Of a stretch of 64,000 nucleotides of DNA, positions 128 to 61,444 are shown piece by piece. A program made the translations under genes and the position numbers. This stretch comes from Botryllus schlosseri (lineage: Eukaryota). Numbering within the stretch: the first letter of the stretch is position 1; every line of letters begins with the position of its first letter. The stretch is from NCBI GenBank assembly GCA_051294905.1, contig CM119371.1:9240001-9304000 (forward strand), written 5' to 3'. The notes beneath the pieces were generated by a model, which was given only the letters and a program-made list of their open reading frames with translations, did not search any database and had not been told where the DNA came from.

Positions 128-345
128 TATCGTTGCTGGCCTGATTTTTCGAGTCTTCAACAAGCCAATAGTTCCGCTGGCAGAATCACATCTGCAATAG
201 GCTCTGTGGACATTATACCATCACTGGCCTACATAATCGCATCTGCATTGCCTTGGTGCTCACGATATTATCGCCGGCCTGCACAATCGCATCTGCAATA
301 GGCATGGTACGAACGATATCATCGCTGGCCTAACCATAGTCTCGG
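128..345. repeat. Degenerate ~51-bp minisatellite
   Basis: AATC(A/G)CATCTGCA at ~184, 235 and 286; the ATCGCTGGCCT motif recurs with a similar period. Confidence 0.65.
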
Positions 346-2355: not shown

Positions 2356-2944
2356 TATAGAATGTTAACATGGAACGGCAACGACCGATTTTGCAGCTTC
2401 GTTCCACTTCGCTGAGGCTGGAGTGGAGGATTGTTTTGCGTAAGCGACTGTAGGATTTCTGGCAATCCAAAAGTTATATTCCAGAGCGCAGAAATTACTG
2501 AATCTGGTCTTGATCGAAAGCTATTGTCGCACTGATTCCAAAAATATGAAGAAAAATATAGTCACGCTCCAGTCTTCGACGAAAAATCACCCTCAACATC
2601 TGAAATGTGCATGGTTCAGAACAATCGGATGACTGCGACACAATGGGCACAACAATGACCCGTTGCGACTCTCCGATTATTCGAACAATGCCGATATTTC
2701 AGACTTGGAGGGCTGATTCTTGGCGGATCAGCGCCTGATCATATTTTAATTTATAATTTTCGGTTTCGGTGCGACAGTAGCTTTCGATCAAGACCAGATT
2801 CAGTAAATTCTGCGCTCAGGAAGATAATTTTTGGATTGCCAGATATCCTACAGTCGATAACGCAAAACAATCTCCACTCCAGCCTCAGCGAAGCGGAAGG
2901 AAGCTGCAAAATCGGTCGTTGCCATTCCATGTTAATATTCTATA
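2356..2944. mobile_element. MITE with ~200-bp imperfect terminal inverted repeats
   Basis: 2356-~2560 is the reverse complement of ~2742-2944 (TATAGAATGTTAACATGGAA / TTCCATGTTAATATTCTATA). The TSD is ambiguous. Confidence 0.85.
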
Positions 2945-3683
2945 ATGGCACGTTACTATCTTGCTAACTGTCGAGTGGGAATAAGACACATCGATTCCAT
3001 TCTAAATCATCAGTCCATAACCAATGAAAGTGATACATATAGGTGACATTAGAAATGTTTTAATGCACTCTGGAATATTTCATGAGCAGTAATGTGAAGG
3101 AGTAAATGGACTAATAATGACGCTCAGAGATGCTAGCTCCTTTTACAAGCGTTTAAACCCCCTTAATGTCGGGGATCTGGCACCCACCTTGTCGTCTCGT
3201 CTCTTGCTTACACGGATATGTTGAAAAGGTCAAGTCGGGCAATAATTATTTTGGTGTGATAACATTCCAGTGCAAAATTGATTCAAGTTTTTTAATCCAA
3301 AACAGAAATGATTATTAACAAATAATTAGATTTTCGAACTTAACGCCCCATAAAACCTAAAGTGGCATCAATGAAATGAGATAAACAAGATTGCTGTAAC
3401 GTGATGTAATTCTAGAATTATTTGATTCCTATCAGTGAGTTACTATGTTGACCGTTGCCATATTCTTGCCAATTAGTTCATTAAATCTAGCACACTTCGG
3501 ACTTGTGATATCGATTAGAAATTGCCAATCATTTTTGTTGGCATTTATGAATTACCACAGCCTGCCACTAATATTGACTGGAATAGTTTTATAGTTTGAC
3601 TACCATTTTATAGGTAACCGATTTCGAATGTAGTTAATGGACATCTATGATACAGAACATAGCAGCGTTGATAACTCGAGATC

Positions 3684-9600: not shown

Positions 9601-12600
9601 TAAATATAAACGCAAGATGGCGCTTTATCGCTCACATATACGTAGAAATGCTAAAATATACGTACGTAATTGCATGTCATCGGATTATAGTTACCAGCCA
9701 AAATAGAGAATAAAGAAACGAATTGATAAGATGCAATACATTACCCATTTACAAATTGATATGATACAATTCCAGCCTGCGCCAATGGTATAGGACTGTA
9801 TAAACTATGTTGGAATTCCATTTCAATACAACAAGGTTTGGTTAAGTTAAGAACAGAGAACAGAAATAGGCCTTTGCTGTTAAATTACTTTACTGGGTAC
9901 TAGTTTACGACAGCGTTAGTTGTAAGCTTCGATCACTTCGTTTGCGATCAATATATTTGTGAGAGAACAATGGAGGCACAACAAAACGCTCGATCACGAT
10001 CATTGAATGATTGGTCACGGGTTAGACTAGCCACTAGCGTTTCGCGTACAATCTGAACATATACAAGATAAAGTGAATTTTATCGACATCGATTGCTTGA
10101 TGACTCGAAATTGACTCGTGAATTTTTCTCCGAGTCACGAGTCAATCCACATTTCTGATACGCCGAGTCAAGTCAAGTCAAGTCATTTCAGCAAAGTGAC
10201 TCGAGTCAAGTCAAGTCATACGAAAAAGGTGACTCGAGTCATCCAACACTGCATTCTATACGTGCCAATTAGTGTTGTATGGCCTTTCTTCTTCATACAT
10301 GTACTTAAGTACAATCAGTAACTACTTTATGTTGATATCCGTGAAGTGTTGTATACTATGCCATTGTAAAAGTGTAAACATATTTACGGCGAACGACCGA
10401 TACGAATATAGTTGTAAGTCAGCAACAGAATCTATAACACAAGAGAGTGCTATGTGATTACTGATTTATATAGAAGGGCCGTCCCGATCGCTTATCACTG
10501 AACACAGTATGTAAATATTAAAGAAGTCCACAAGAGGCAGCAATGATTGGTAGTAATTATTAAAGTCATATACGAACAGAGTCAAAGGATACCGACATAG
10601 CTGTAAAAACGAAACACTTACCCTACCTCAAATCAACATGCAACTTATCGCTCGGCAGGATTTTTCTCCGGGATATCAATCAATGTGATCTACCTCACCA
10701 TATCGGTTTATTACGTGAAACATCGCTCGAAAGCAGCTGGATTGATCACAGCCGGAGTTTCAATTGGAGTCCTCGTGGCCGCTCCTGCTCTGTCATCGCT
10801 CATTAGCGAATATGGATGGCGCGGTGCGATGCTCATTACCTCAGCTATGACGCTGAATGCTTGCGTGGGAGTGGCATTGTATCGGTGAAGGAAATACATA
10901 GGTTATACCTAGAGCGATTTTTTTTTTACATTTTAGACAAAGTCAAAATTAGGTCAAAATTGTTACGTTAGATCAGTAGTTCCCAACGTGGGCGATTTGG
11001 CGGTCTAGGGGGGCGAATATGACGAAGGGGGCGACAGGGAGCGAAAATGGACAAAGGGGGCGACGGGGGGCGAAAATAGCGAAGGGGGCGATAGGGGGGC
11101 GATGACGCGTCAAAACGGCTGACCTTTTTTTTTTAGTCAACCCACGGAAATTTAGTTACAAAAGTGTGTCATATTAGACATCGAGCCGAAAATTTGACCT
11201 TTTTTTTTTAGTCAACCCGCCTGTGATTACAGTTTGTATGCCCAATTTTCGGTACACAAAATTTGGGGGGCGATTATCGGTGTTGACCTTGAAAAGGAAG
11301 CGATGGGTAAAAAAAGGTTGGGAACCACTGCGTTAGATCAAATAATGTCAAAATTGTTTACAAAGGTTAAACATTTATGCAACCTGCATTTCGTTTGTAT
11401 CGTAGATTTTGCACTGTCGGTCAACTTATCATTTGACATTTCACATCTTGTAGCCTACTTTATAGGCCTAGCGTTGTCGACGGCTCATTGTCTGCTCATT
11501 GTGAACCATAAACAAAAAACTGAAACAAATAGCTTGACATGGTGTTATGCTCAACGTACTGTAATATCCCAACTGAAGCAAGACTGCGTGGGCATTGCAT
11601 GGTTCTTATATCCAGAAGCGCAGGATGAAAAATTGTGATGTATTGTTGACACCGTTGCCAGAATGAAGCAACACGGTTTGTCACGAGCAGATGTACGCAC
11701 AACTTCAATGTTGTCAGTCAGCCAACAACTGCTGATGTTGAACGTACTTTCTCCATTCTTGGCAAACTACTTAGTAAGAATAGTCACTTTCTACCCGAGA
11801 ATGTATAGAAAAGTATCTTTCGTTGAACTATTGATTTTAAATATTTCTACCATAATACATATTGTAGCTACTGGAATTCTTCACCGGGCCAGATTTTGTT
11901 AAAATACAGTTTTTTCATGTCAGTTTTTGGGGCAAAAAAGTTTTATTTTCAGGCCAAATTACTTTGTAAGGACCTTTAGTTCCAACCATAAATGAAGATA
12001 AGTAGTACAATTCTAACATTATGTGGGAAAACTCCTAATTTGCATACGTTAGGTCAAATTTGGTCAATATTAAGTTTATTTTAGGTCAAAAAATGTCAAA
12101 ATTTTGATTTTTTTATGTCAAAATCTTCCGTTTTTTAGGTAAAAAAAAATCGCCCCAGTTATAACAGAAGAGTCAGCTACATATAGCTTCCAAGTAAGGT
12201 ATCGACCAGGAACAGGCAATTCGATTCGATCCTGAGTCGAGTAATGTATCGAGTATCATTTATTATAGTACCGCACTTAATACTAGTTCGCTACCAAATC
12301 GAGAACCAGGATGATTCGATCCCTAGTAGAGATTAAACTTCGAGTCAAGTCAATTTCGTATATATGTGAATATTATATATAAATAGATAGTTAGCAATAC
12401 CTTAATATATTGACGACTTGGTCACAGAGAATCGTCAGATCCATGCCGCCGTGTAACATCTGACTGGTCGAAATACCCGTCACACAACCAAAGTAAATAT
12501 AACTTTCTCTTTTTCAGACCAGTAACTGTAACAGAAGCGGCAGAAAACAATGTGACTGATGCCATGATCGTGACAAAGTCACGTACTTCAGATAAGACAC

Positions 12601-18663: not shown

Positions 18664-19636
18664 GGTATTGATAACTAATTTACGGATAGATGTGCAACAA
18701 GTGACTCATGATTGAATACGCCGAGATGCGTACTGCTTAGCTGGCAAAAAGCAGCATAATTGGTAGCCCTATAGCTTGCGACCCAAGCGTCCGAATAATT
18801 TGATATGTCGGTGTCTATCGAAAGCAAGTGTCGCACTGATTCCAAAAAGACGAATTGAAATCTCGCCAGGGCAATAAAACTACTCCGAAATAGCCAGCAA
18901 AAGTTGATTGTTCTGAACAACGGGAGCCCGGCAACACAATATCCAATGGCGTCTAGCGAATGATAAGAACAATGCCAATTTTTATATTTTGGTGACTATT
19001 TGCGGTTCCTTTCATTGTCTTGGTATTTGTGCGGACCCGGTCGTACTCTGAAATTCCAAATTTGGCCCAGCCACCGAAAAAGGTTGGGAACCACTGATTT
19101 TGGGTGTTTTCGTGTCCGCAACATACTATGACTATAATTAAGAAACACACCTCTGCCTCTTGCTGCTCTGGGCTATGAGGCACATGACGAACATCATTAG
19201 TAATTCAGCACATCAGTATCTTACATTGCCGTAGGTATCGTTCGAGTTGTAGACTTGGTAGTTTTACTTTTTCTCCCTCTCCAATATTAGAAGCTGTCAA
19301 ATAGGATTCTTACTATATTTCGTATTTAAGTCACCACAAGTGCGATGTTTCAAATGTAACCTATTCGGTCACGGAGTGAAACATTGAAGATGTATTCAAC
19401 GTTGCACTAAATATTGGTGACACTATGTAGGGAAATGCGTTAAGTCACTCCGTTGCGTAAACTGCTGTGAAGCGAGTTTAGTTGGATACACGGGATGCAG
19501 GCCGCACTGGTGTACCGCTTCTCAAGCGTAACACGACAAAAATGAATGATTGGAAAATATAGCAAGAATAGTGGCACGTCTTCTTTTGCTTTAACTGTTG
19601 ACACTTCCGGTACCACCAGCATTGGTCCGCGTAGAG

Positions 19637-20801
19637 CAGTGGTTCCCAACCTGTGGTACGCGTACCAATAGTGGTACGCGAAGGTCTTCCAGGTGGTACG
19701 CGAGTAGATTCTGTTAATTTTTTCGACCAAAGGAAGATATTAGTTCAGGTGGGTTTGATTTTGAATTTTTTGAATTTTTTTGACTAGTGGTGAAAAAACA
19801 ATTCCATGCATCTCATCAACCCGGGCTGATAATGCCTAGTTTAATAAAATTTGGTATTAGTAGGGCTATTTTTTTTACAAAATTGAGCGTTAAGTCAAAA
19901 AATTGTCAAAATTGTTTACAAAGTCAAAAGATTTTTGACCCCTCCATTTCGTTTGTATCGTAGATTTGATACTTTAAAGCTTTAAGCCTACTTTATAGGC
20001 CTACCGTTGTAGGCGGCCCATTGTCTGCTCATCGTGGATCATAAATTGTCAAACGAAACGAATAGGTTGTCAATTGACATGGTGTTATTCTCAACGTACC
20101 GTAATATCCTAACTGAAGCAAGACTGCTTGGGCATTGCATGGATATTTTATCAAGAAGCGCATGATGAATAGGCCTAATTGTGATGTATGACGTGTATGA
20201 CAACAATGTCAGAATGAAGCACCATGGTGGGTCACCAGCAGTGTACGCACAGTCTCAGTGTTGTCAACCAACAACTACTGCTGTTAAACGGTAGGCTATT
20301 TTTCCATTTTTGGCAAGCTACTTAGTAAGGACAGACAATTTTCACCCGAGAATGTAAGAAAGTATGTTTCGTCGTTGTACTACAACAAATTTTAATTAAC
20401 TCCTCCATAATACGTGGTGTAACTACTGGGTCAGATATCGTTAAAATAAAGTTTTTTCATGTCAAAATTTGTCAGTTTCTAAGTCAAAAAGGCTTTTTCA
20501 GGCCATACTACTTCGTAAGGACAGACAGTCCTTACCAAAATTGAATATAAGTAGTACAATTTTAACATTATGTGCGAAAACACCTAATTTGCGTACGTGA
20601 AGTCAAAATTCGGTCAAAATTCTCCAAATTTTTAGGTAAAAATCGCCCTACACCGCACATAGGCCAATTACGGGATTATGACGTCATAAATGGTGAAAAC
20701 ATTTTTACCGCGTACGTCGTGCGTAAATTATGTAGGTGGTACGCGAGCACTGCATAAAACCTCGAAGTGGTACGCGGAAGGAAAAAGGTTGGGAACCACT
20801 G
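19637..20801. mobile_element. hAT-type non-autonomous element
   Basis: CAGTGGTTCCCAACCT / AGGTTGGGAACCACTG ends; perfect TSD GCGTAGAG. An inverted end fragment lies at ~49944-49996. Confidence 0.85.
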
Positions 20802-29006: not shown

Positions 29007-30310
29007 GTTGTAAGTAGTAAATGACGGTCAAACCCGGCGACCAGCTCATCACATACTAAACATACGGGTTTGCCTCAAATTTGAGTGAACAAATATATAG
29101 TGGCCCATATCTTCTTGAAAGTACGGCCTTCATCGCGCACTTTTTTTGTCATGCTTATTCATTATTCATGACCTTATGGATGACAATGACGGCTGATAAC
29201 GTACAAGCGCACTGTGCATGTGCACTGACTTCCTCGTTGAAAGAATTGGAGATCTGAAAACCTGAGGCGTAAACGAATAAAAGCACAGAGCGTGTTACAA
29301 TAACAACACACATGGTTTTAACTACACTGACGGAAACAGTGAGTTGTGACTTTAATTGTTACGGCATACTTTACTATATTGGTTTTTATTTTGAATGTTC
29401 TTTAAATCCGAACTACCCATACATAGGTCACTTACACACGGTACATAAGTGAATACGCTTCATAGAAACATACTTTTTGAACAGTTTGTACAGCCTATGG
29501 TTTTTCACTTTTACTCATTCAAAAGTATGCCTCGTGTTCTGAATTCCAAACAACATGTCGCAGACCGCAGTTTGGCCAGATTTGAGTTATATGATAGTTA
29601 TGCACATGACTACGACAAGAAATATTTATCACAGCAATTCACCTGTTTTTTCCAAGTGCTCCTTCGCTATTCCCATATCAGCTGTAACGAAATAGCGAGA
29701 CACATGATAAGCGATTTGAGAATAAAGAGAAAAGTATTTACAATGACAATGCTTCATAAAATATCCCATATAATTATTTGACTACACTATACAGTTTGTA
29801 GTATTTCGGGAATCAAATTGTATCAAACATTTCAGATCGCCGCAAGGAAAACAAGCACAGCAACATATCAATATCCGTGTTTCTCTATCTAATTCGGATT
29901 GCACCGTCATATACTATATCTAAGACTTGATTGCTGTGACCAGAGGTGGTCCAAGTTATCACGAAAGCTACTGAACAAGAAGTAGAAGTGACGTGGAATT
30001 CTACTCAAGTACGAGTAGAAGTAGCGTTTTCCGAAGCAGCCAAAAATGACGTCAAGTAGAAGTTGAGCTGGCTGTTAATACTACTCAAGTCAGTAAGTAG
30101 TTTTCAAAAGAATCAGACATAAATACCCTATGGTGGATCGTCAAAGTTTGGTAACTAACATATCGTCGCAGTGGAATCAAAGTAGCTTATGCTCGTTTGT
30201 CAAATTGATAGAAAATCAAGTTCTTGTAAACTTCTCATCTTTGATCGGCCATATCTTGACCGTGTTGATGTTTGTCACGCTGTTTGAAAGTTATCACCAT
30301 GGGCAAAATA

Positions 30311-30867
30311 CAGGGTTGTAACCAAGTCACAAGGCTCCGAGTCACAAGTCAATCTCACTTTTATAGTTTTGACTCGAGCCAAGTCGAGTCATTTCAATTC
30401 ACCACCGAGTCAAGTTCGAGTCCAAGTCAGCGAGCAGAGGGTCGAGTCCGAGTCATGGAATTATGACTCGAGTCCGAGTCCAAGTCATTCTATAGACTGC
30501 TCAGTTTCCAGTTAAAGTATTGGTAAACCCACTTTTTATAACTCTGTTCGGTGATATCGAATGTTTCGCATTTAAAATAGACCAATTTTCCTCACTTTTA
30601 GCAGTTTCTGGTCGCATATTCAAGTACCAGTACCGACAGACGAAATCCCAATAGTGTGTTGGCTTCGGAATTACAATGAAATGTCGGTCTTGGCTTTCTG
30701 AGTCTCGAGTCAATGACTTGGTTCGAGTCATGTGCAATGACTCGAGTCCAAGTCGAGTCAATACACAGATTGACTCGAGTCGAGTCGAGTCATTTCCGTA
30801 TTTTGAAAAAATGACTCGAGTCAAGTCGAGTCATCAGAAAATCGTGACTCGAGTCATTACAACCCTG
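30311..30867. mobile_element. GACTCGAGTC-rich MITE family, copy 1
   Basis: CAGGGTTGTAA / TTACAACCCTG ends; perfect TSD GCAAAATA. Confidence 0.88.
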
Positions 30868-39453: not shown

Positions 39454-39734
39454 TCATTTATGACCAATATCAATGTATCATTAATCTGACTTCTGGGGAA
39501 CACATTGTCGGGTCCAGCATCTACCGTTTAAGCGTACGCTTATCTTCCCTTGTTAGTCCTTGTCGTATTTGTTGATAATATGACGGAATATATCGATTTT
39601 ATGGAATTGTTATAGCATTTGATTGTTCCAGTTGATACATTTTGTAATGCTCAAGCCATCATTGCTGCAGCACTATGGCATAACGTGGGCCGAGCCGTCT
39701 TTGGGTATCTTGTACAATTTACATCGATATATTA

Positions 39735-40314
39735 CAGGGTTGTAACCAAGTCACATGGCTCCGAGTCACAAGTCAATCTCACTTTTATAGTTTTGACTCG
39801 AGTCAAGTCGAGTCATTTTCAATTCACCACCAAGTCAAGTCCGAGTCCAAGTTATCGAGCAGAGGGTCGAGTCCGAGTCATGGTATTGTGACTCGAGTCC
39901 GAGTCCGAGTCATTGTGTTGACTGCTCAGTTTCCAGTTAAAGTCTTGTTAAAGCCACTTTTTATAACTCTGTTTGGTGATATCGAATGGTTCGACTTTAA
40001 AATATGCTAATTTTCCTCACTTTTAACAGTTTCTGGTCGCATTTTTAAGTACCAGTACCAATAGACGAAATCCCGATAGCGTGATTACTTTACTATTCTT
40101 CGAAATTACAATGAAATGTTGGTCTTGGCTGTCTGAGTCTCGAGTCATAAGACTTGGTTCGAGTCATGCGCGATGACTCGAGTCCAAGTCAAGTCAATAC
40201 ACATTTTGACTCGAGTCGAGTCGAGTCATTTCCGTATTTTGAGAAAATGACTCGAGTCAAGTCGAGTCATCAGAAAATCGTGACTCGAGTTTGACTCGAG
40301 TCATTACAACCCTG
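39735..40314. mobile_element. GACTCGAGTC-rich MITE family, copy 2
   Basis: Same TIRs as 30311-30867; perfect TSD ATATATTA. Confidence 0.88.
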
Positions 40315-44233: not shown

Positions 44234-44530
<297 letters not shown>

Positions 44531-46007
44531 ATGGTTGTGCTCGACGCCGAAAATCGACGTATGGACGATATTCGTTCGATTTAAAGCACGCAAGAGGCAG
44601 TGGCGGCTCGTGACAATATCGGGTGGTGGGGCAAGGGCTGCGAGCGACTTTTATCAACATGACGTCACAATGGCGTTTTCCAACGTAAAAAAGTAGCTTT
44701 AATATGATGGTCACATGAATTTCCCGACAACAGTGATTTTAACGTAGGTGCCGCGAGCGGTTTGCCGGTGAGCCGTGACTTGAAGTGTGGTAACAAATGT
44801 TTTATTCCTTTTTTTTTAATCAAAGGATTATTTTACATAATGTACGTGATCTAAGAATCGTCCCTATGCCACGAATCAATTATCAGGTCATCCTTAGTAG
44901 CATGCGTTATGATTTCATGGTAGAGTTAGAGATTACGCAAATCGATAGGCCGTCCGAAAGTGTTTCGTACACGATCCTGGTGTGTTACGACCACTGAGCT
45001 GATGGTTACGAGTTACGACCAGGTGATAGGCAACCAAAGCGGAGGTAACCGGCGTACGATTGGATCAATGGACTGGACAATTTCTAGACCTTTAATTTTC
45101 GCTCTAAAGGCAACTGCGTAAACTAGCCTACGTACGGAGCAAAGATTCAATACGATTCATGTTCGCACTTGACTTGACCAGACTAATTCCAATGACTAAA
45201 ACTCGAGAGATTGCGTAAGCCTAACTGCAAAGGTCAACGACTTCGGACACATACGCAATTGTTATCTCATAGATTGGGCCTGTCATATTGAATCCAGAAC
45301 ATCAATTTGAATGGTCTTTGAAGAACTAAGGACGGCAGCCTCGGAACTTCGGTCTCGGAACAACATAGTACATTTTGGCCTTGAAACTGGAGATTGTGAC
45401 GCAGCACATACGGCTTACTGTCTATAAGTCTGCTGCGAAATCGCCGTTGGAAAATATATTAATCAATAAATACATGAATGAAAGCCGTAAACTTAGCATA
45501 CTGTTACATGAAATCATCGAGAAGTAGCATTCGCAATCTCATAACCCATTCCGGCATGGTACACTGTCAAAATCAATACAAACAGACGAACACCGAACTT
45601 TGAGTAAAATAGATCGAGGAATAGGCTGATCGAATGATCAGCTGTTAGCCGACATCGAAAATGAAATAGCTATCGCATTTGACAGGGGATTGTAAGCAAA
45701 TGGTTTGAAGGCCACAATTTCACAGTGAAATGCACATTGGCGAACATAAAATTATGTGAATATTTGAATGCAAACCGAGAATCTTAGTTAGCTGTTTCAT
45801 GCGATCATCGAGATATACCATTGGAAATATCATCACCGATCTCGCTATGGATCGCAGACTAGATTAGCACAGACAGACACCGGCTTTTGCGTGAGATCCA
45901 CAATGATGTAGGTAGGCTAAGTATCAGATCAGCGCGCATCTCTACCATACTCGACCTCGAAAACGAAATAACTGCCTCAATCATTGAGCGTCAACTTTAG
46001 GACTTGG

Positions 46008-47913: not shown

Positions 47914-50469
47914 AATGTCATGACCGATCTCGGTATGGAACATCGTCAAAATCAATGGAGATCAATACCGGCTTTTGAGTAAAATCTGTTTGCTGTACAA
48001 TGTACATGATAGATCAGCACACACTGAACTTCGGAAACGAAATTACTACCCTTATCTTTAAGTAGCAAGCCTGAAACTTGGAGCAGTGCTAAATACGACC
48101 TTCACGACATATCATACCAAGTTTCAAGAATTATCATGGTGCGAAACACCGTCAAAATCGACATATACCAGCAAAGGTCGACTCAACGCATATCACGGTA
48201 ACCGAGTTCAGATATAAATACGATTGTTACATCACACCTTAGGGGCGACAGGCATAGTTGCCCCACTTGCTCGGCCATTTTACGAATAGGAGAGAGTAAA
48301 TCACCGTTTCTTTATTGTGCGCGGCTTTGAGAGAATAGATAGTGAAAGCTTGTTATGAGCGCTACCGGGGCAAGCCCCGGCTAGGCATTCACAAAGCGAA
48401 AACACAGAAGAGAATTCGATTTTCGCAGACTTCGCTATGTATGGGCATTTGTTACCGAAAGCACAAGAATAATGCGGGTTTCGCTGTGATCTCGGTATAT
48501 TCTGATTGCTGTGCGTCTATAAATGGTTAAATTGTTATTGAACAGAATTTTAGGTGGGGCAATGCCCCAGTTGCCCTATAGGACGAGCCGCCACTGGCAA
48601 GAGGGCTGATTCAGGTGAGCAAGTTTACGGCAACGTAAGCTAACCTCAGATCACTGCGTTAACGATCAATTCATTATTGATGTAACAATGGAGGCTCGGT
48701 AAAACTCGCAACCATTGAATGATCGGTTAACAATCCGAACTTATAAAAGATATGGCGATTTAGTCGACATCGATTACTTGTCGACTTGAAATTGACTCGT
48801 AAATTTTGCTTCGAGTCACGAGCCAACCCGCATTTTTGAAGCGTCGAGTAAAGTCAAGTCAAGTCATTGTTACAAAGTGACTCGAGTCAAGTCGTAATGG
48901 ACGAGCTAGCTGGACGCCAAAAAGCCAGGTCAAAGTGTTATGGCCATTTCCGGTGAACTGCGGACTAATCTATTTAATGATATAGGCTTACTATACGCCC
49001 CGAAATTGCGAGTGGTCACTGGTAATGGCGAGGGACTGCTCAGAGCCGCGCCAAGCGCGAAATTTTTTCCAGATTCACGAATGAATTTCGTCATTGATAT
49101 TAGTAGTTTTACATATTACTATCAAACATTGATCCTTTCTCAGCCAACGTGATCAGATTCACCGGTATAAAGTTTTCGAAAATTCAGGGCCAGTTATAAA
49201 TTATGATGCATCTTCGGGCGAGGTCATTATTTTATTGCATGCTGTTATTTCTTGACCTCCCGTCAGGATTGTCGGTATAGTGAGGAGCGTTCACGGTTCC
49301 GAGTTGGTATTTCTATACGAGGCACATCATTTTCCTCTGCTGCTGTTTGTATCTGTTGTGGGGCTCTGATTGCAAAGGCGCTATACTGTATTGAAATCGA
49401 AAATTGAAGTCACATTACCAAGATTAATTAAAAGCTTTCAAGAAATCGGGAGTTAATTCGTTAATTCAAATTGCATTTCGGCGGCCGCACAAATTTCCCT
49501 CTACGGCCGCAGTTTGGCCACCCCTGCACTAGGCATTATCGGCCAGGGTTGATGGGATGCATGGAATTGTTTTTTCACCACCAGTCACAAGACGAACAAC
49601 ATAATGAAATAACAGCGAAAGTCAATTTATTTAATGCAATGGCTGCATTTGTTTATTTTCCACTAGCTGGTCGATGCGTGGCATACGTTTTCTCACAACG
49701 CATCGAACGTCATGCAGCTTGGGCGCAACAACTGGGTTTTGTTTCTTCGAATTGACAGTCATCGGGGATGAAAATCCTTGCTAGCACTCTGACGTAGAAT
49801 GGAAAATTAGGAGATGGGGAATAGCGCGAGAAGCTAGCGTCGAGTACGATGATGCCATGCTAAGCCAGAAGTTTATTGGAGAACAATCTTTTCAAAATCA
49901 ACCCCACCTAAAAATAACTACCTTCGGTCGAAAAAAATAGAATCTACTCACGTACCACCTGGAAGACCTTCGCGTACCACAGGTTGGGAACCACTGTTCT
50001 ATACCAATAAAATATTATCGCCCTCGGCAGAAGCAGACCGTACCCATATGATACCTCTTGCGGATAGGTGTTTCGATAGCATAATGCGCTAGAGGGCGAT
50101 CTCTTTGTTACCATGGGAACTGACACTAGCGCAACTAAAGCTGATATTTGCGCTGCGTTCCGTTTGACACCCGAAATGATGCGGAGCTGATATCTGCACA
50201 CGAAATAGCGCCAGACATGCCCCAGACCTGATACCTGCGAACCATTTTTATGCGGACATGCTCCGGACCTGATATCTGCGCGCTGAACGGGCATCCCTAA
50301 AAGACGGAGAAGCGGAGGCAGCGGAGACAGCGGAGGCAGCGGAGAACGGACCCTAAAACGCGGAAGCAACGGAGACGGCGGAGAGAGCCAAAAATGCCGA
50401 TTCCTAAAAGACGGAGACAGCGGACCTAGCGGAGAGCGGAGATTTCGGTCATTAACCTTTATAGACACG

Positions 50470-51935
50470 CGCGACATAGCAGACGGATACTGAAAGCGGA
50501 GTCCGGGACCCCGCGAAACGGACATAGCGGACGGTTATATAATATAGAAAGCGGAGATCAGGGCGTATCGGAAGATGTTTCGAAGCAGTGGAGAATAACG
50601 GAGAAGTCAGCCATCCAAGTTCAAGGCCAATTGGGCGACTGATTGCCCATCGATGAGATGACATAGCGGGCGGTTATATAATACAAGGAGAGCGGAGTTC
50701 GGGGCGTATCGGAAGATGTTTCGAAGCAGTGGAGAATAACGGAGAAGTCAGCCATGCGAGTTCAAGGCCAATTGGCGACTAATTGCCCGTCGATGAGATG
50801 ACACAGCGGGCGTTTATATAATACATAGAAAGCGGAGTTCGGGGCGTATCGGAAGATGTTTCGAAGCAGTGGAGAATAACGGAGAAGTCAGCCATATGCA
50901 AGTTCAAGGCCAATTGGGCGACTGATTGCCCATCGATGAGATGACATAGCGGGCGGTTATATAATACAAGGAAAGCGGAGTTCGGGGCGTATCGGAAGAT
51001 GTTTCGAAGCAGTGGAGAATAACGGAGAAGTCAGCCATGCTATTTCAAGGCCAATTTGGCGACTGATTGCCCGTCGATGAGATGACATAGCGGAGGGATA
51101 CTGAAAGCGGAGTTCGGGCCCCCGCGAAATAGACATAGCGGACGGTTATATAATATAGAGAGCGGAGATCAGGGCGTATCGGAAGATGTTTCGAAGCAGT
51201 GGAGAATAACGGAGAAGTCAGCCATGCGAGTTCAAGGCCAATTGGCGACTGATTGCCCGTCGATGAGATGACACAGCGGGCGGTTATATAATACAAAGAA
51301 AGCGGAGTTCGGGGCGTATCGGAAGATGTTTCGAAGCAGTGGAGAATAACGGAGAAGTCAGCCATATGCAAGTTCAAGGCCAATTGGGCGACTGCTGATT
51401 GCCCGTCGATGAGATGACATAGCGGGCGGGTATATAGTACAAAAAAAGCGGAGTTCGGGGCGTATCGGAAGATGTTTCGAAGCAGTGGAGAATAACGGAG
51501 AAGTCAGCCATGCTATTTCAAGGCCAATTGGCGACTGATTGCCCGTCGATGAGATGACACAGCGGGCGTTTATATAATACATAGAAAGCGGAGTTCGGGG
51601 CGTATCGGAAGATGTTTCGAAGCAGTGGAGAATAACGGAGAAGTCAGCCATATGCAAGTTCAAGGCCAATTGGGCGACTGCTGATTGCCCGTCGATGAGA
51701 TGACATAGCGGGCGGGTATATAGTACAAAGAAAGCGGAGTTCGGGGCGTATCGGAAGATGTTTCGAAGCAGTGGAGAATAACGGAGAAGTCAGCCATGCT
51801 ATTTCAAGGCCAATTTGGCGACTGATTGTCCGTCGATGAGATGACATAGCGGACGGATACTGAAAGTAGAGTTCGGGACGTAGCGGAAGATGTTAAGAAA
51901 CAGCGGTGAAAAACGGAAAAGGCAACCATGCAATT
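50470..51935. repeat. Tandem array, left arm of foldback element (~140-146-bp unit, one 187-bp variant; 9 units plus 1 degenerate)
   Basis: GAAGATGTTTCGAAGCAGTGG recurs at about 50571, 50712, 50852, 50995, 51182, 51322, 51468, 51608 and 51754. Confidence 0.93.
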
Positions 51936-52313
51936 TGGTGTATTTCAAAGTATTCGATAATATATAACCGGCACATATTTTTTTCGATCTGAGAACTAAT
52001 AATTCACTCCAAAATTTTCTAAAAACCCGAAACTGTTCATCTACCGTTACTGTCACACAGGGTTGTAACCAAGTCACAAGGCTCCGAGTCACCAGTCAAT
52101 CTCAGTTTTGACTCGAGGTCTGATACGATCTGAGGTTGGATCGATCTCAAAGTGCGGCGTTGGAGCATTGAGCAAGCGCTTTCCGAGACAAGCCCTTTGA
52201 CTCGAGGCCTTACTCATTCACTTTTTTCGGTTTGGCCAATAATATTGAGTGCATGGAAATTGTGCTGTGAGCATGTTTGGTGCCTGAATTCACAATTTCA
52301 ATTGTAATATATA

Positions 52314-53155
52314 CAGAGGTGGTCAGTAACGAAGTAGCCTACTTCTACTTTTTCGAAGTGCTCAAGTAGTTTTCCTCTACTTCTAGTACTTACTCAAGGA
52401 GATCTGATTTTCACTACTTCTACGTAATATTTTGTGATCTACTTACTTTTCGCTATTTTCAGTTTGTCAAGTAGAAGTAGCCTAATCCTCCAATCAGGAA
52501 GATAGCCTGAGGAATTTCGGGGCTGTTTTCACGGAGTATCCACATCTAATTTTCATAAAAGTTGAGTAAAGCCCAGAATTTTCATCGCGTTTCGCGCGCA
52601 GTGGATGCGGCATAAATAAAGCTACACTCTATGGCATTTTTACGACGCACCATATTTTTATTAGCGTTTACTAATCGCGCAAGGTGTTTATACACCGTAT
52701 CCTATACAACTTCTCCGTATTGCGCTTTGACTAAACTGCGGGCCTTATAATATGAAGGAGGGTGCGATACCATGATCTTTTCTAAAACGTGCTGTTTCAG
52801 TATACAGAGGATTAGTATCGCATTTCCATATCAATACTAGCATTTTTATCCATTGATGCGGAAGAATGCTTATGCTGTCGAAAATTGGATAGTTCCTGGT
52901 ATGCATCAATATGAATCAAGCTCGACACCTTTCGCGTAGCTCAATTTCCACGTTTTGACAATCCATGCGAACGAATTACGATCGTTCTCACAACTACTTA
53001 CTTACTTGAGTAGATTTAAAGTCAGTCAATTCTACTGCTGCTTCAAGTAGTTTTAGGTTTCTTATGGAAAACGTACTTCTACTCGTACTTGAGTAAATTT
53101 TTTCGTCGCTACTTCTACACTTGAGTAGCTTTCTTGACTACTTTGATCACCTCGG
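52314..53155. mobile_element. MITE nested in the foldback spacer
   Basis: CAGAGGTGGTCA / TGATCACCTCGG ends; TSD AATATATA; CTACTT subterminal repeats. Related ends occur at ~29941 and ~60695. Confidence 0.8.
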
Positions 53156-54171
53156 AATATATAGCAATGTTACATAAGAAGTAAATCATGCTCTATCGCC
53201 GTATGGCTTCATCGTTGGCTGTGCAGGCTATTCCCAAATAGGTGGACATTTTTGACCATAAGAAAGTCTTCCAAAAGCGGTTAATTGCTCAACTCACTGT
53301 TTTATCATTTAGGTATAAAACGTAGCATCAGGATAGGTAGAAACGACTGTATGATGTATGTTACTGAAAAAACACACACAAATTGTTGTGTACAATATAT
53401 AGCGATCTTCAAATCCTAACAAGAACCGGATCCGCGGCGATGCGGGTAGACGATACGGCGCCTCAGCAGACAAATGCAATACACCATGCGGTGGATGACC
53501 TGGCGCTTTATGAATGTACGCAATGTTAGATCATCGCAATACCCCTGATTAAACCGTCCGGCCCCGCGTATATGGCTGGAATATCAGCAACGCGGTGCGG
53601 GTACCACTATACCCATTATCAGTAACCCATACCTATACCCATTAACATGTGCTTATGCCTGAAAACTTCAGGATTAAGTATGATGTTTCATTATTTGGAA
53701 ATATTTGCTCTGGCTATTACAGTATATGTCAAATAGTCCTTAAATTGTTATTGAGCTTGGGAGATAATATATATCTTTAGTCTTTACCGATTTGAAATGA
53801 ATTGTATAAGCGGCAAGCTATAGTTGAATAGTTTGAGCTAGGTTGATATTTCGTGTGTGTAGCGATTACAGATAGCAGTAATTGAAGGAAATACTGGGCA
53901 ACAAACATCACATCTAAACCCGCGGATCGCCAGATCACGAGTAATTAATAAAACCTCAGAGGTCTGCGAGCAGTCATCAGCTGTCAAATCTATTGAGTAA
54001 AGACTCGAAACTGCAGAATGATCTTCTAGCCAGTGCCGGTCCCAAGCTCGCGAAATTAGGCAGGGTGAAACTTGAAACGCCACGAGTTGAGCTATCGTCC
54101 GCAATCACAGCTAATCGTCGAATATGACAGCCCTTTCATATACTCGAGAGGACAAGCACAACTATCAACAA

Positions 54172-56315
54172 CGTCTGCTATGTCATCTCATCGATGGGCA
54201 ATCAGTCACCTTGAACTCGCATGGCTGACTTCTCCGCTATTCTCCACTGCTTCGAAACATCTTCCGATACGCCCTGATCTCCGCTTTCTATATTATATAA
54301 CCGTCCGCTATGTCTCTTTCGCGGGGCCCCGAACTCCGCTTTCAGTATCCGTCCGCTATGTCATCTCATCGAAGGGCAATCAGTCGCCTTGAACTCGCAT
54401 GGCTGACTTCTCCGCTATTCTCCACTGCTTCGAAACATCTTCCGATACGCCCTGATCTCCGCTTTCTATATTATATAACCGTCCGCTATGTCTATTTCGC
54501 GGGGCCCCGAACTCCGCTTTCAGTATCCGTCCGCTATGTCATCTCATCGAAGGGCAATCAGTCGCCTTGAACTCGCATGGCTGACTTCTCCGCTATTCTC
54601 CACTGCTTCGAAACATCTTCCGATACGCCCTGATCTCCGCTTTCTATATTATATAACCGTCCGCTATGTCTATTTCGCGGGGCCCCGAACTCCGCTTTCA
54701 GTATCCGTCCGCTATGTCATCTCATCGACGGGCAATCAGTCGCCAAATTGGCCTTGAACTCGCATGGCTGACTTCTCCGTTATTTTCCACTGCTTCAAAA
54801 CATCTTCCGATACGCCCCGATCTCCGCTTTCCTTGTATTATATAACCGCACGCTATGTCATCTCATCGATGGGCAATCAGTCGCCAAATTGGCCTGAAAC
54901 TCGCATGGCTGAATTCTCCGTTATTCTCTGCTGTTTCGAAATATATTTCGCTACGCCCCGAACTCCGCTTTCAGTATATTATAACGATATAACCGTCCGC
55001 TATGTCATCTCATCGATGGGCAATCAGTCACCAAATTGGCCCGAAACTCGCATGGCTGACTTCTCCGTTATTCTCTGCTGTTTCGAAATATATTTCGCTA
55101 CGCCCCAAACTCCGCTTTCAGTATATTATAACGATATAGCCGTCCGCTGTGTCATCTCATCGATGGGCAATCAGTCGCCCAATTGGCCTTAAACTTGCAT
55201 GGCTGACTTCCCCGTTATTCTCCACTGCTTCGAAACATCTTCCGATACGCCCTGATCTCCGCTTTCTGTATTATATAACCGTCCGCTATATCTATTTCGC
55301 GGCGCCCCGAACTCCGCTTTCAGTATCTGTCCGCTATGTCATCTCATCGAAGGGCAATCAGTCGCCAATTGGCCTTGAACTCGCATGGCTGACTTCTCCG
55401 TTATTCTCCACTGCTTCGAAACATCTTCCGATACGCCCCGAACTCCGCTTTCCTTGTATAACCGCCCGCTATGTCATCTCATCGATGGGCAATCAGTCGC
55501 CCAATTGGCCTTGAACTTGCATGGCTGACTTCTCCGTTATTCTCCACTGCTTCGAAACATCTTCCGATACGCCCCGAACTCCGCTTTCCTTGTATTATAT
55601 AACCGCCCGCTATGTCATCTCATCGATGGGCAATCATGCAGTCGCCCAATTGGCCTTGAACTTGCATGGCTGACTTCTCCGTTATTCTCCACTGCTTCGA
55701 AACATCTTCCGATACGCCCTGATCTCCGCTTTCTATATTATATAACCTTCCGCTATGTCTATTTCGCGGGGCCCCGAACTCCGCTGTCAGTATCCGTCCG
55801 CTATGTCATCTCATCGAAGGGCAATCAGTCGCCTTGAACTCGCATGGCTGACTTCTCTGCTATTCTCCACTGCTTCGAAACATCTTCCGATACGCCCTGA
55901 TCTCCGCTTTCTATATTATATAACCGTCCGCTATGTCTATTTCGCGGGGCCCCGAACTCCGCTTTCAGTATCCGTCCGCTATGTCATCTCATCGACGGGC
56001 AATCAGTCGCCAAATTGGCCTTGGAATAGCATGGCTGACTTCTCCGTTATTCTCCACTGCTTCGAAACATCTTCCGTTACGCCCCGAACTCCGCTTTCTT
56101 TGTACTATATAACCGCCCGCTATGTCATCTCATCGACGGGCAATCAGTCGCCCAATTGGCCTTGAACTTGCATGGCTGACTTCTCCGTTATTCTCCACTG
56201 CTTCGAAACATCTTCCGATACGACCCGATCTCCGCTTTCTATATTATATAACCGTCCGCTATGTCCATTTCGCGGGGTCCCGGACTCCGCTTTCAGTATC
56301 CGTCCGCTATGTCGC
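54172..56315. repeat. Tandem array, right arm of foldback element (~13 units of ~136-188 bp, inverted relative to left arm)
   Basis: CCACTGCTTCGAAACATCTTC (reverse complement of the left-arm motif) recurs. The first three units have a 178-bp period, and two variant units lie at ~54900-55150. Confidence 0.93.
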
Positions 56316-57580
56316 GCGTGTCTATAAAGGTTAATGACCGAAAGCTCCGCTGTCTCCGTCTTTTAGGAATCGGCATTTTTGGCTCTCTCCGCCGTCTCCG
56401 TTGCTTCCGCGTTTTAGGGTCCGTTCTCCGCTGCCTCCGCTGTCTCCGCTGCCTCCGCTTCTCCGTCTTTTAGGGATGCCCGCGCTGAACGGACCCAGAT
56501 TTAACGAAATATATTGGTATAACGCCATTTTAATAATATTCACTAAGGAGTTGGTAAACCTTACTTAATTCCCTGAAGTGAAAACCCGATAAGACCTTTG
56601 TGAGTCGTATATTTTGTCGTGTGAACGTAGATAATAAAACATGAAATCATACGATGTTTTGGATATATACTCTCTCGTGGCTATGAGAGATATGCGGATG
56701 TAATACCACGTAGAGATATTCATTCGTTCATTATTCGCTGACTCGGAAGTCCATTGCATTGCCGTACGTGAGTCAATAAAGTTACAAGTCGTGGAGACAG
56801 AAACAAAATATTTGCGTCAGTGTGATCCATCGAATACGTGTGCAATAGACTGGTCGTGGTACGTCAGCCCACAAGGCCGTACGGCACGGTTTCGCCGGTC
56901 CGTCAAGAGAAGAAACACGCAGCGAATTGTAAACGCAACCTTCTGGAGTCAGATAAAACACAACTATAACATCTACAAACATTCGCTCTGCGTTATACCA
57001 GACATGCTTTAGACGTGATATCTACGCCCTAGACACACTGAAAACAACGTGTGACTTTTAGATGACCTCTATGTCTCCTGTTTTTGTGATATCTGCGATA
57101 TCTCAGTATCTTCACAGTGATATCTGCGATATCTCAATATATCCACAGTAGTGATATGTGTGATGTCTGCGATATATGGGAATATTCGTGGGGCCCTATC
57201 GAATATAAACATTTGTTTACATTCGATATTACCACGATACGATACGATACACGCTGTGTGTGATGGAGCGTATTTCAATTTTAGTGAACCGAGTCGAATT
57301 AGAGGGAAAGGTGTAGCTGTAGATATTTAAATGGGTAGCTGTGTAAATATTATTTGGAATATCAACCAACAGTCTTCCTAGATTTTGTTCGTTGCTGATT
57401 TTTGGTCATATAGCCAACCGGATCTCGCCTCCTTTTACCTTTTAGCCTTCTAGCAACTGTACGTACTACGCAGTAAAGTGGTGTACACATTGTAACTGTA
57501 ATGACTCCTATTCGATCCAGGAAGACACAATTGATGCAGACATTCCTATTGAATAATACATTCATTCACAGATCAAGATC

Positions 57581-60500
57581 ATGAAGACATCTCAGTCTTT
57601 ACATGTATTGCCTGACAGTGCTTGGTCTTGGGTGATTTGCTTCGGCAATGTACTGGCCTCGTTCAGTTCCTTGGGAATATATCGCTGCCTTGGAGTATTT
57701 TACCCTGCAGTCATGTCTGAATTCAATGTGAACTACGCGGAAGTGTCTCTGGTGTCAGGATTGTTCACAGGGAGCATGTCTTTCGGCTGTAAGCATCCTT
57801 TTTATTCGATTCTAGTAGCTGTCAGGAATGTTTTAGCGTTCAAAATTTTATTTCGAACAGCCTTGTTTCTTGTTCTTGTGAAATGGGTGGGCCTCAGAAA
57901 AATTGGAATGGGGACCAATTTGCTTTTGAGTATTTCCGTATTCGTTGCGTCGCAAAGCACCAGCATTACAATGTTTGTGGTGACTTGTGGAGCATTGTGT
58001 GGTAAGTGACTTACCGTAAGTCGGCTATGCATGGGTGAAATTATGAAAATGCAAATTTAAGTCATATTCAAATAACATTACCGACCCGCATTGTCCCATC
58101 GCAATTATTTAATAACGGAAATTCAGTGTATCACAGCGATTCAATAAAACTAACTTGAGTATGGAGCTCTTGCAATCACCCCAACCCTAAAATCAAATCG
58201 CAGATCTGCGTGACTTCCTACCCATGTGTTGAAGGGTTTCCTGGCTACCCATCAACGTACAATCCGTCCTAGTAGCCTAGTAGCTTGCTACCGTAACAGT
58301 CTTGGGCAAGTTTATTACATGATTGTGATCATCCTTGACATGTCCCATTTCATTATTCATATTAGCGAAGAGAAATTGTTCTCAACCCTAAACCAAGTCA
58401 GTAACCCCGTACAGATTCATGAATATGACCCCAACCAATAATTTAAGGATATCACACACAAAACAACGTGTGCATCGAGCATCAGACGCTTGCTAAAATT
58501 TAAATTCATATTTCCTATGTGTATGTCTTTGCGACGCCATGTCAACAAATGTTGTTTATGTGTGATGCCATTGTTAGACAATACTGTTACTTTGTTATAC
58601 TTCAACTTTGTGATACGATTGGTGATATAGGCTTACAATGTTCTTTCCAATTCTCTAGCTTACTAGCTTCTGACGATTACCGCTGACGAGTGTCAGCCAA
58701 AATTATTACAGTTCATTTCAATATTCAATTGTATATTGAAGTTCTGTACCTCCAAGAACCACTTCAGCTGTAGAAAAATAGGAAGAAGTTGGTGATTACT
58801 GATTAGGTTGCATCAGTTTTATTGGGGAAAGTGTCATAAGAAGCTCGTCAAATAGCTCGTTAATCACGGTATGTTCTTGTACATTGTACCTATTTGTAGT
58901 GTCATTAGTCACTTTGCGTTGGCCGCTGAGATACATCTCGCAATTTCGAAAGTGTTCACTTCAGATTAACAGCTAAAACTATGCGGTCGTTCGACCAAAT
59001 CAACTTTTGAAGCTAATAGTTACTTCAGAAATTTTAACACACTTCCACTTGTGTAGTGTCTTGGAAATTCTCACTTTTGCACAACTTGACTGGAACTTGA
59101 ACTTGAACGTCTTAGCTTTACTGTTTCCTCTACTCTTGAGTAGGCTAGCAGCCCTGACCATATAGCCCATCTGATCCACCACTGGTCTGTGCCAAGCGCA
59201 CTCATTGTAAGCTCATAGGACTTGTTAAATAGGGCTGTTCAAAAGTAACTTTTCTCGACTGTTACTGGCTACCAATGTTACCTATAATTTTTCACGAGTC
59301 TGAGCGCTCTCACCATGTCACTGCGCATTCCCTTGGACAACAGTGCGTGACGACTAAAAAAATAGTTATCACTTCGGCTTTTTTTTGTGCGCAGCATATT
59401 TTCTGTCCGTGGAGGCCGTGTCAGAACTGCGCAATTGCGCACACGCGCAGCTTATAGGGAACATTGCTGGCTACCACATGAAATTGTTAGGTTGTCTGAA
59501 AAAAATGATGCACAGCAAATTCGGCTGAATTCCATCCAGTAGAAGAGAAGTTATTAGGGATGAAAATTTCGGATTTGGAAAATATAGCAGCCTATTTACG
59601 GTTGCAAATTCTTTCATTATTTATTACAGATCTAACCACCATAAATGCTATGATTTGAAATCCTAAATTTGAACAGCAGTAACTTCGCTTGTGGGTTGGA
59701 ATCTATTGTGGATCGTTTTTGAAACAATTTAACAATTTCATGGTGGAGCCAGTAAAATTTGATTTGATTTTTTTTAATGAATAGCTTGAGTCCAAAATTT
59801 TCCACTGTGATAACTTCACTTCCACTGGTTGGAATTGAGCCTAAATTAGTTTTCAGCAGGGTTGTAATAACTCGAGTCGCGATTATTTGGTGACTCATCT
59901 TGACTCGAGTCATTTTTTTATGCGTAAGTGACTCGACTCGAGTCTATTTGTGTATTGATTCGTCTTGTACTCGAGTCATCGCGCATGACTCGAACCAAGT
60001 CACACGACTTGAGACTAGGACGACCAAGACAGACATTTCCTAGTAACTTCGAAGAATAGTAATGTTATCACATATGATTGGTATTTCGTCTATTGGTACT
60101 TGTACTTGGAAAACAGGTCCAGAAACTGTTGGGATTCAGGAAAATTACGATATTCTGAATGCAAGCCATTCTATAGGCTATCACTCGAGCAGAGTTAAAA
60201 ATTAGTCGACTTGTCTCGAGTCAAAATTATAAAAATGAGATTGACTTGTGAGTCGGAACCTTGAGACTAGGTTACAACCCTGATGTGCAGGGTTTTTATA
60301 GGTAACGTAACAATGTTATCAAGTTGCAAGTAAAATTTGAAAAAAAGAATCCGGCTAGTCTTTACATCTTACGGTGATGAAAAGCTCAGATACTTCCATC
60401 TTGCAGGATTTTGCGGCGGATTATCAGTCAGCTTGATCTTCCTGAGCATATCGATTTACTACAACAAACATCGCTCGAAAGCGGCTGGATTGACGACTGC

Positions 60501-60632
60501 CGGACTGTCCGTTGGCGGTCTCGTAGCGGCGCCTACTTTATCTGCGCTCGTTGGAGAATATGGATGGCGCGGCGCGATGCTCATTACGTCAGCGGTGACG
60601 CTTCACGCTTGCGTGGGAGCCGCACTGTACAG
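57581..60632 (+). CDS. Second SLC16/MCT-like paralogue, exons 1-3 (3' part not found in window)
   Basis: Exons 57581-57788, 57861-58001 and 60407-60632 have the same lengths (208/141/226 nt) and phases as exons 1-3 of the first gene. Motifs PDSAWSW, YYNKHRSKAAG, EYGWRGAMLI. An acceptor-like ttcacAG just before the ATG suggests an upstream 5'UTR exon. Confidence 0.9.
59273..59466. mobile_element. Short MITE
   Basis: CAATGTT / AACATTG ends; perfect TSD CTGGCTAC. Confidence 0.8.
59857..60282. mobile_element. GACTCGAGTC-rich MITE family, older inverted copy
   Basis: CAGGGTTGTAA / TTACAACCCTG ends; the TSD is degraded. Confidence 0.78.
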
Positions 60633-60870
60633 GTGAATGGAACCAAATTGATTGTAAAATAGGATAGGGTTCGACATGGCTTTCGAGTGATACACAGAGG
60701 TGATCAAAGCATTCAGCGTAGTTAATAAAGTGGAAGTAGAAGTAAAGCAGTATAGTCGCACTCCATCACAAGCAGGATTGTAACGTAACCAAGTCACAAG
60801 GTTCCGAGTCACAAGCCAATCTCACTTTTGTAGTTTTGACTCGAGTCAAGTTCAAGTCGGCGCTCAGCGG

Positions 60871-61444
60871 CAGGGTTGTAACCAAGTCACAAAGCTGCAA
60901 GTCACATGGCATTCTCACATTTTTGGTTTTGACTCGAGTCAAGTCGAGTCATCATAATTCACCACCGAGTCCAAGTCATCGAGCAGAGGGTCGAGTCCGG
61001 GTCACGGTATTATGACTCAAGTCCGAGTCCAAGTCATTGTGTTGACTGCTTAGTTTCCAGGTACAGTCTTGTTAAACCCACTCTTACAACTCTGGTGATA
61101 TCGAATGATTCGCATTTATGAATATACCGATTTTCCTCACTTTTAACAGTTTCTGGTCGCATTTTCAAGTACCAGTACCAATAGACGTAATCCCAATAGG
61201 GTGGTTACTTATATAACTGTTCTTCGAAATTACCATGAAATGTCGGTCTTGGCCGTCTGAATCTCGATTCATATGACTTGGTTCGAGTCATGCGCAACGA
61301 CTCGAGTCCAAGTCGCGTCAAGACACAGATTGACTCGAGTCGCGTCATTTCCGTACCGCTATTTTGAGAAAATGACTCGAGTGAAGTCGAGTCATAAAAA
61401 AATTGTGACTCGAGTCTGACTTGAGTCAAGTCATTACAACCCTG
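60871..61444. mobile_element. GACTCGAGTC-rich MITE inserted into an older copy of its own family (~60773-61640)
   Basis: Perfect TSD CTCAGCGG. The flanks on both sides continue a homologous, more diverged copy. Confidence 0.85.

Follow-up and report, generated by a model that had tools for sequence, protein, structure and literature searches.

A probable non-autonomous foldback transposon with modular, satellite-like arms upstream of an SLC16-like gene in Botryllus schlosseri

Introduction

Foldback elements are recognized by very long terminal inverted repeats (TIRs) that form most of the element, by the division of these TIRs into several domains whose sub-repeat number is specific to each arm, by a target-site duplication (TSD) around the element as a whole, and by dispersal as multi-copy families in which flanks and TSDs vary from copy to copy. 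The sub-repeats of Drosophila FB are short, measuring tens of base pairs, and the sea-urchin TU elements, which Liebermann et al. are said to have described in 1983, reportedly have modular TIRs built of short outer tandem repeats and an inner domain. Galileo, a Drosophila element of the P superfamily, makes a TSD of 7 bp, and foldback-like elements of that superfamily make TSDs of 7-8 bp. Here we analyze a 64-kb window of the Botryllus schlosseri genome (the whole stretch of 64,000 nucleotides from positions 9,240,001 to 9,304,000 of contig CM119371.1, assembly GCA_051294905.1), in which a non-autonomous foldback DNA transposon very probably occupies the interval 50289-56481 as a single insertion.

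Along with the TU elements, four described systems offer the closest comparisons. Drosophila FB4 is reported to have long, internally repetitive TIRs whose length varies between arms and between copies, with TSDs of 9-10 bp; it is non-autonomous, its transposase is given there as unknown, and its arms are prone to tandem duplication (PMC8277862). Tetris, from Drosophila virilis, is described as an element with a non-coding middle, tandem repeats of ~220 bp next to a flanking domain, and a TSD of 8-10 bp, and its report presents neither an autonomous copy nor a transposase (Dias et al. 2014; PMC4079207). For both FB4 (PMC8277862) and Tetris (PMC4079207), change in the arrays by unequal exchange or slippage has been described. 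Tm1 of root-knot nematodes is reported with composite multi-domain TIRs, variable tandem repeats, unequal arms and mostly 9-bp TSDs, and many of its members are non-coding while one encodes a Phantom-type MULE transposase (PMC3169594). Galileo is described with foldback-like long TIRs containing internal tandem repeats (PMC3573991, PMC4168063), and these repeats carry secondary transposase-binding sites, as cited in the Tetris paper (PMC4079207).

Results and discussion

Boundaries, tips and target-site duplication

We analyzed the element by direct reading, with an inverted-repeat finder, with Tandem Repeats Finder (TRF) and with custom scripts. It measures 6193 bp, and a comparison of its arms shows tips that are exact reverse complements over 134 nt. 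Directly after this identical stretch the left arm carries 16 extra nt, and over the outermost ~520 nt the arms are 96.8% identical (487 matches, 16 mismatches). Abutting the left tip is a 9-bp copy of GCGCTGAAC at 50280-50288, and abutting the right tip is another at 56482-56490; these flank sites are its sole occurrences on either strand of the window, and the chance of a 9/9 flank match calculated from base composition is 5e-6. In full, the direct repeat at this offset extends to 12 nt (CGCGCTGAACGG) because the element's own tip bases (GGG...CCC) lengthen the TSD. Only two parses leave symmetric tips: a 9-bp TSD with tips GGGCATCCC, or an 11-bp TSD with tips GGCATCC. We favor the 9-bp parse since contigs from other copies, described below, match through 56481/56482. 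In either parse the duplication surrounds the whole element. An earlier note on this DNA had proposed that two apparent satellite blocks are a single element bounded by a perfect 9-bp TSD, and both proposals are borne out by the 134-nt inverted identical tips and the duplication, although the right-hand copy given there was one base off.

These tips bear on two alternatives that dispense with a single insertion. According to the first, two blocks of a ~141-bp satellite were inverted by a local rearrangement, and the flanking 9-mer is a coincidence or a product of microhomology. The units are indeed very abundant in the genome, and the organization of the two arms differs as that of independent satellite blocks might. 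However, both blocks end in the same terminal domain, which is not made of the ~141-bp unit, is identical over 134 nt and abuts the 9-bp repeat; this terminal domain is itself multi-copy, with homology between copies stopping at the tip, and a flank match with a chance of about 5e-6 sits poorly with coincidence. We therefore regard rearranged satellite as very unlikely.

The second alternative invokes two opposite insertions of a one-ended, satellite-carrying element of the Helitron/Helentron kind, with host DNA as the apparent spacer. Helitrons and Helentrons have asymmetric ends, no TIRs and no TSD. The outer ends found here are instead symmetric inverted repeats, the 9-bp direct repeat encloses both arms and the spacer together, and the inner ends of the arms have no terminal domain. 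Such non-autonomous elements are described as carriers of dispersed satellite-like arrays in some invertebrates (PMC7492417), which is the point in favor of this explanation, but with ends of the wrong kind we consider it extremely improbable.

Arm anatomy

The arms occupy 1642 nt (left) and 2298 nt (right) of the 6193-nt element, very long TIRs that form most of it, and aligned with each other they yield 1590 alignable columns at 94% identity. Each begins with an outer, terminal domain: on the left at 50289-50472 (plus strand; 184 bp, with 10 inward-pointing CGGAG motifs) and on the right at 56314-56481 (minus strand; 168 bp, with a 16-nt deletion relative to the left). This domain comprises three sub-repeats of ~52-56 bp, each starting with CCTAAAA and continuing in runs of (N)GCGGAG 9-mers, for which TRF returns a period of 9, and the sub-repeats are followed by a 31-bp unique linker.

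Inside the terminal domain lies an array of units 130-147 bp long (mode ~141 bp), interspersed with a 48-bp module that is a truncated variant of the unit start. The left inner array (50473-51936, plus strand) reads as a module and four units, a module and five units, a partial module and a degenerate unit, giving nine full units of 138-146 bp and two full modules. The right inner array (54172-56313, minus strand) holds 13 units (130-147 bp) and seven 48-bp modules, and its inner end consists of three consecutive 178-bp repeats, each a module plus a 130-bp unit. The TIRs are thus multi-domain with sub-repeat numbers specific to each arm (9 vs 13 units, 2 vs 7 full modules). The earlier note had outlined the same plan, and its measures needed adjustment: the outer domain of GCGGAG-based 9-mers, put at ~170 bp, is 184 or 168 bp depending on the arm; the units of ~140 bp with an optional module stand at 130-147 bp, with the module 48 rather than ~46 bp; and of the copy numbers ~10 vs ~13, the right is 13 and the left is nine full units with a degenerate one.

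The units fall into types that are only partly shared by the arms. Type a, which always follows a module, and type b are found in both, and type c is confined to the left arm. Type d (R8 and R9, ~80% identical to other units) and a 130-bp variant with a 9-bp deletion (R3 and R11-R13) are confined to the right. Within an arm some units are nearly identical (L6/L8 at 98.6%, R11/R12 at 100%), and local higher-order periods of 286 bp in the left array and 178 bp in the right are apparent; the near-identity of neighboring units points to recent local amplification. The arms remain in register through the outer domain, a module and two units, and deeper in they differ by gains and losses on the scale of units. 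The observed/expected ratio of CpG is 1.41 in the arms vs 1.06 in the remaining window.

The arrays contain open frames of 124-152 aa, at 51045-51789 (minus strand) and 54758-56165 (plus strand), because the 141-bp unit is a multiple of three (3 x 47 bp). When the 152-aa open reading frame (ORF) that crosses the left array was used as a protein query, 40 candidates came back, none at E <= 0.001. With this null result we rejected the array ORFs as genes and treat them as by-products of the periodicity.

Comparison with described foldback elements

This architecture is of a known foldback kind, from which the element differs in unit size, in a three-tier build around one motif and in its host. 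Like the TU elements, which are reportedly modular as described above, it has TIRs with outer and inner domains. Its ~141-bp units set it apart from Drosophila FB, and its 9-bp TSD from Galileo and the P superfamily at large; Galileo in any case belongs to another superfamily. With FB and FB4 as described (PMC8277862) it shares internally repetitive TIRs of unequal length, a 9-bp TSD and a non-autonomous character.

Tetris, as reported (PMC4079207), is similar in having a non-coding middle domain, a TSD within the 8-10-bp range and no autonomous copy found. A short stretch is shared between the Tetris tandem repeat and its flanking domain, much as the units and terminal domain here share AGCGGAG; in contrast, the arms here combine ~141-bp units with an optional 48-bp module, and their terminal domain is 168-184 bp vs up to 866 bp in Tetris. 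Tm1, assigned to Mutator/Foldback, shares the composite TIRs, unequal arms, 9-bp TSD and non-coding state, whereas its repeats of ~14 bp and its asymmetric 7-bp end motifs are unlike those of the element here (PMC3169594). The same report gives Tm1 a tested superfamily link through its MULE transposase, a link that has no counterpart here.

An oriented motif in every tier of the arms

The window contains 108 occurrences of CGGAG vs 59.6 +/- 7.1 in shuffles, although the tandem build of the arms inflates this count. The arms hold 71 of these occurrences (31 left, 40 right), every one of which points inward from the tip (71/71, none reversed), while the spacer has a further three and the rest of the window (57.8 kb) has 34. 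Among 30 distinct sequence contexts, A stands at position -2 in 27 and G at position -1 in 24. The motif is common to all three arm tiers, namely the terminal sub-repeats, the 48-bp module and the unit. These oriented AGCGGAG motifs are likely transposase-binding sites, for which the additional binding sites described in the Galileo repeats (as cited in PMC4079207) serve as the model.

Other copies in sequencing runs

A search of public sequencing runs found the sequence in 20 runs from 9 studies, all of one organism, with no RNA run among them. Around the right junction (56126-57000) we aligned contigs of four of these runs (four studies) that were at least 85% similar to it, which gave 286 to 6055 contigs per run; the contig findings below hold among the matches listed, beyond which lie 446 loose-end rows and 7633 contig pieces. 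In all four runs the unit and the outer domain have very high summed depth, many positions of the window copy differ from the majority letter in the run contigs, and contig joints show the tandem order of module and unit. In one run (X6), four of the contigs listed follow the outer domain as far as 56481/56482, beyond which their ends differ from one another (agreement 0.54). We read these contigs as other copies in other flanks, with a family homology that ends at the tip. Within the window, the tip, module and unit have no further copy outside the element, and the immediate flanks of the element are unique. The run contigs support the membership of the element in a multi-copy family.

The unit-to-outer-domain depth ratio is 7-28 in the runs vs 11 in the window copy, where depth is not to be equated with copy number. 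As a hint subject to this same limit, the ratio does not point to a large satellite independent of the element, and the suggestion in the earlier note that the element can seed satellite DNA finds no backing here. In Tetris, by contrast, the TIR-220 repeat is reported to form independent satellite arrays (PMC4079207). Exact tip and unit strings had no match in paper texts, metagenome contigs or prokaryote genome contigs, collections that are unlikely to contain animal repeats.

The contigs also bear on the possibility of an assembly artefact, in which the inversion was created by a read that was chimeric or folded back, or by the wrong joining of two satellite arrays. Sequence made of inverted repeats or satellites is easily mis-assembled, and none of the listed contigs bridges the junction. 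Artefactual palindromes, however, are near-perfect and spacerless, whereas these arms differ by a 16-nt indel, by 9 vs 13 units and in their unit subtypes; they are separated by 2.2 kb of unique DNA, which harbors a nested element that has a TSD of its own, and a TSD flanks the entire structure. An origin in assembly is accordingly a very remote prospect.

Several points nevertheless weigh against a single transposed foldback insertion as set out here. In none of the four runs does a listed contig bridge the 56481/56482 junction of the window copy, which we attribute to the repetitive right flank breaking contigs. Neither the window nor the listed run contigs contain a second complete copy, an autonomous copy or an empty site, and the check for an empty site at the right junction covered both the listed contig joints and the loose ends. 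Contigs with differing flanks were seen in one of the four runs, among the loose-end rows listed. The binding role of CGGAG is one that we purely infer, and the superfamily assignment discussed next is putative and draws on TSD length only.

Mobilization and the choice of superfamily

The spacer, or middle domain (51937-54171, ~2.2 kb), is non-coding and contains no transposase remnant. Its longest wholly internal ORF is 88 aa, and ORFs of 98 and 107 aa overlap the arms; a Pfam scan of the 15 spacer ORFs of at least 45 aa gave no credible match at E <= 1, only three sub-threshold matches at chance level. Outside the spacer, a transposase domain was found in none of the 71 sequences scanned (65 window ORFs of at least 85 aa, five other ORFs and one exon). 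Since the element is non-coding, its movement must depend on an enzyme supplied in trans. A transposase from another locus of the genome would mobilize it by cut and paste, binding the oriented AGCGGAG motifs that fill all three arm tiers, cutting at the GGG tips and integrating the element through a 9-bp staggered cut. Unequal exchange or replication slippage would lengthen and shorten the arrays, which we propose as the reason that the outer ~500 bp are shared in register while inner unit number, subtype and higher-order repeats differ. A hairpin of ~1.6 kb could arise from the arms when they are single-stranded as DNA or transcribed by read-through.

The mobilizing enzyme is most likely of MULE/Mutator type and possibly of Merlin type. 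A 9-bp staggered cut indicates a MULE-type enzyme, as MULE TSDs are reported to be 8-11 bp long (PMC6446971); the duplication found here, 9 bp or 11 bp in the alternative parse, lies within this range, which is not exclusive to MULEs. The superfamily is left between the two because Merlin also gives an 8-9-bp TSD and a GG start: its elements are described with TIRs of 24-462 bp, a conserved terminal 5'-GG and TSDs of 8 or 9 bp (PMC8101967), and the present element starts with GGG and has a 9-bp TSD. On the other side, published foldback families with 8-10-bp TSDs have been tied, or argued to be tied, to MULE/Phantom (PMC3169594, PMC4079207, PMC8277862), the arms here far exceed the reported range of Merlin TIRs, and Merlin would be excluded should the 11-bp parse be right. 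That the same foldback transposon was mobilized by a Merlin-type (IS1016/IS1595-like) transposase instead of a MULE is thus unlikely.

Set against these results, the earlier description of a foldback-type transposon with modular long TIRs and a 9-bp TSD agrees with the arm anatomy, duplication and tips. Its view that the element is trans-mobilized holds as well, there being no ORF longer than 107 aa and no credible Pfam match among the 15 spacer ORFs, as does the kilobase hairpin it envisaged, given arms that could pair over ~1.6 kb (1590 columns, 94%). Its placement in the Mutator/MULE group fits the TSD length but is not matched by a transposase in the 15 spacer or 71 other window ORFs. The epithet "recent" we do not retain, its sole basis being the intact TSD and the identity of the tips. 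Dating by arm divergence we rejected, since foldback arms need not be identical at insertion and their identity cannot supply an age.

A more specific proposal is put forward tentatively, and we regard it as doubtful: the element may represent an undescribed invertebrate foldback family in which all arm tiers are built around the heptamer A-G-CGGAG (as ~54-bp sub-repeats, 48-bp module and 141-bp unit), so that the arms would be stepwise-duplicated arrays of putative binding sites and the family would be the chief vehicle of a dispersed "satellite" of ~141 bp in the genome. If true, a hairpin-forming, CpG-rich block of ~1.6 kb placed 1.1 kb upstream of a transporter gene could feed small-RNA silencing or cause rearrangements. 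A hairpin-forming element so close to a gene is in any case a candidate hotspot for both. Foldback elements seldom come out well in assemblies, owing to the tandem repeats of their arms, and this gives value as a reference to an intact copy with a clean TSD, unit subtypes resolved in both arms and a nested insertion. Such a reference can help to define the family, to find its transposase and to show how transposon arms turn satellite-like. For annotation, two "satellite blocks" should be entered as one mobile element, while knowledge of foldback elements as a class is unchanged.

Nested elements in the spacer

The spacer without a long ORF that the earlier note had described, ~2.2 kb in length, stands as such, and its nested miniature inverted-repeat transposable elements (MITEs) resolve into one complete TIR element with a TSD and one end fragment of ~60 bp. 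The complete element spans 52314-53155 (842 bp) and has short TIRs, CAGAGGTGGTC and CCGAGGTGATC, with a perfect 8-bp TSD, AATATATA, at 52306-52313 and 53156-53163. From the 8-bp TSD, it may be a hAT-like MITE. It reads CAGAGGTGGTC...GATCACCTCGG, and related ends are found at 29943-30102, to which its right end is 76% similar, and near 60695.

The end fragment, at 52054-52117 on the plus strand, belongs to a repeat family beginning CAGGGTTGTAACC..., with start CAGGGTTGTAACCAAGTCAC and rich in GACTCGAGTC motifs, that occurs at least six times in the window. Longer copies are located at 30310-30800, 39734-40090, 60231-60287 (minus strand), 60785-60830 and 60871-61050, and an exon of the second transporter gene, described below, lies between two copies of the family.

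Genomic surroundings

Downstream of the element, the first coding exon of an MCT/SLC16-like gene lies at 57581-57790 on the plus strand and aligns to MCT2 residues 7-69 (E 1e-4). Its ATG at 57581 sits 1100 bp beyond the right tip, which upholds the earlier placement of the element ~1.1 kb upstream of the second SLC16 ATG. A later exon, 60334-60633, matches MFS_1 and residues 114-196 of human-type MCT1, and together these matches identify the downstream gene as SLC16-like. At E <= 1e-5 a 74-aa transporter exon retrieves two database proteins only, both from a gastropod, at 43-45% identity. Another exon, at 10607-10885, matches the same MFS_1 positions (~95-170) as that at 60334-60633, and both genes are on the plus strand. 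This suggests that the two MFS/MCT-like genes (10607-10885; 57581-60633) are a tandem duplicate pair.

Elsewhere in the window, a GC-rich stretch at 44306-44696 contains overlapping 114-aa ORFs on both strands, with no Pfam match. The right flank of the element, 56486-57000, is unique in the window yet repetitive in the runs, where it has high summed depth and contigs ~10% diverged, with repeat boundaries near 56773, 56812 and 56850; older repeats were therefore probably the landing site of the foldback element. On the other side, ~290 bp left of the insertion site, a dispersed repeat at 49528-50001 is matched in inverted orientation by 19632-19840 at 87-97% identity.

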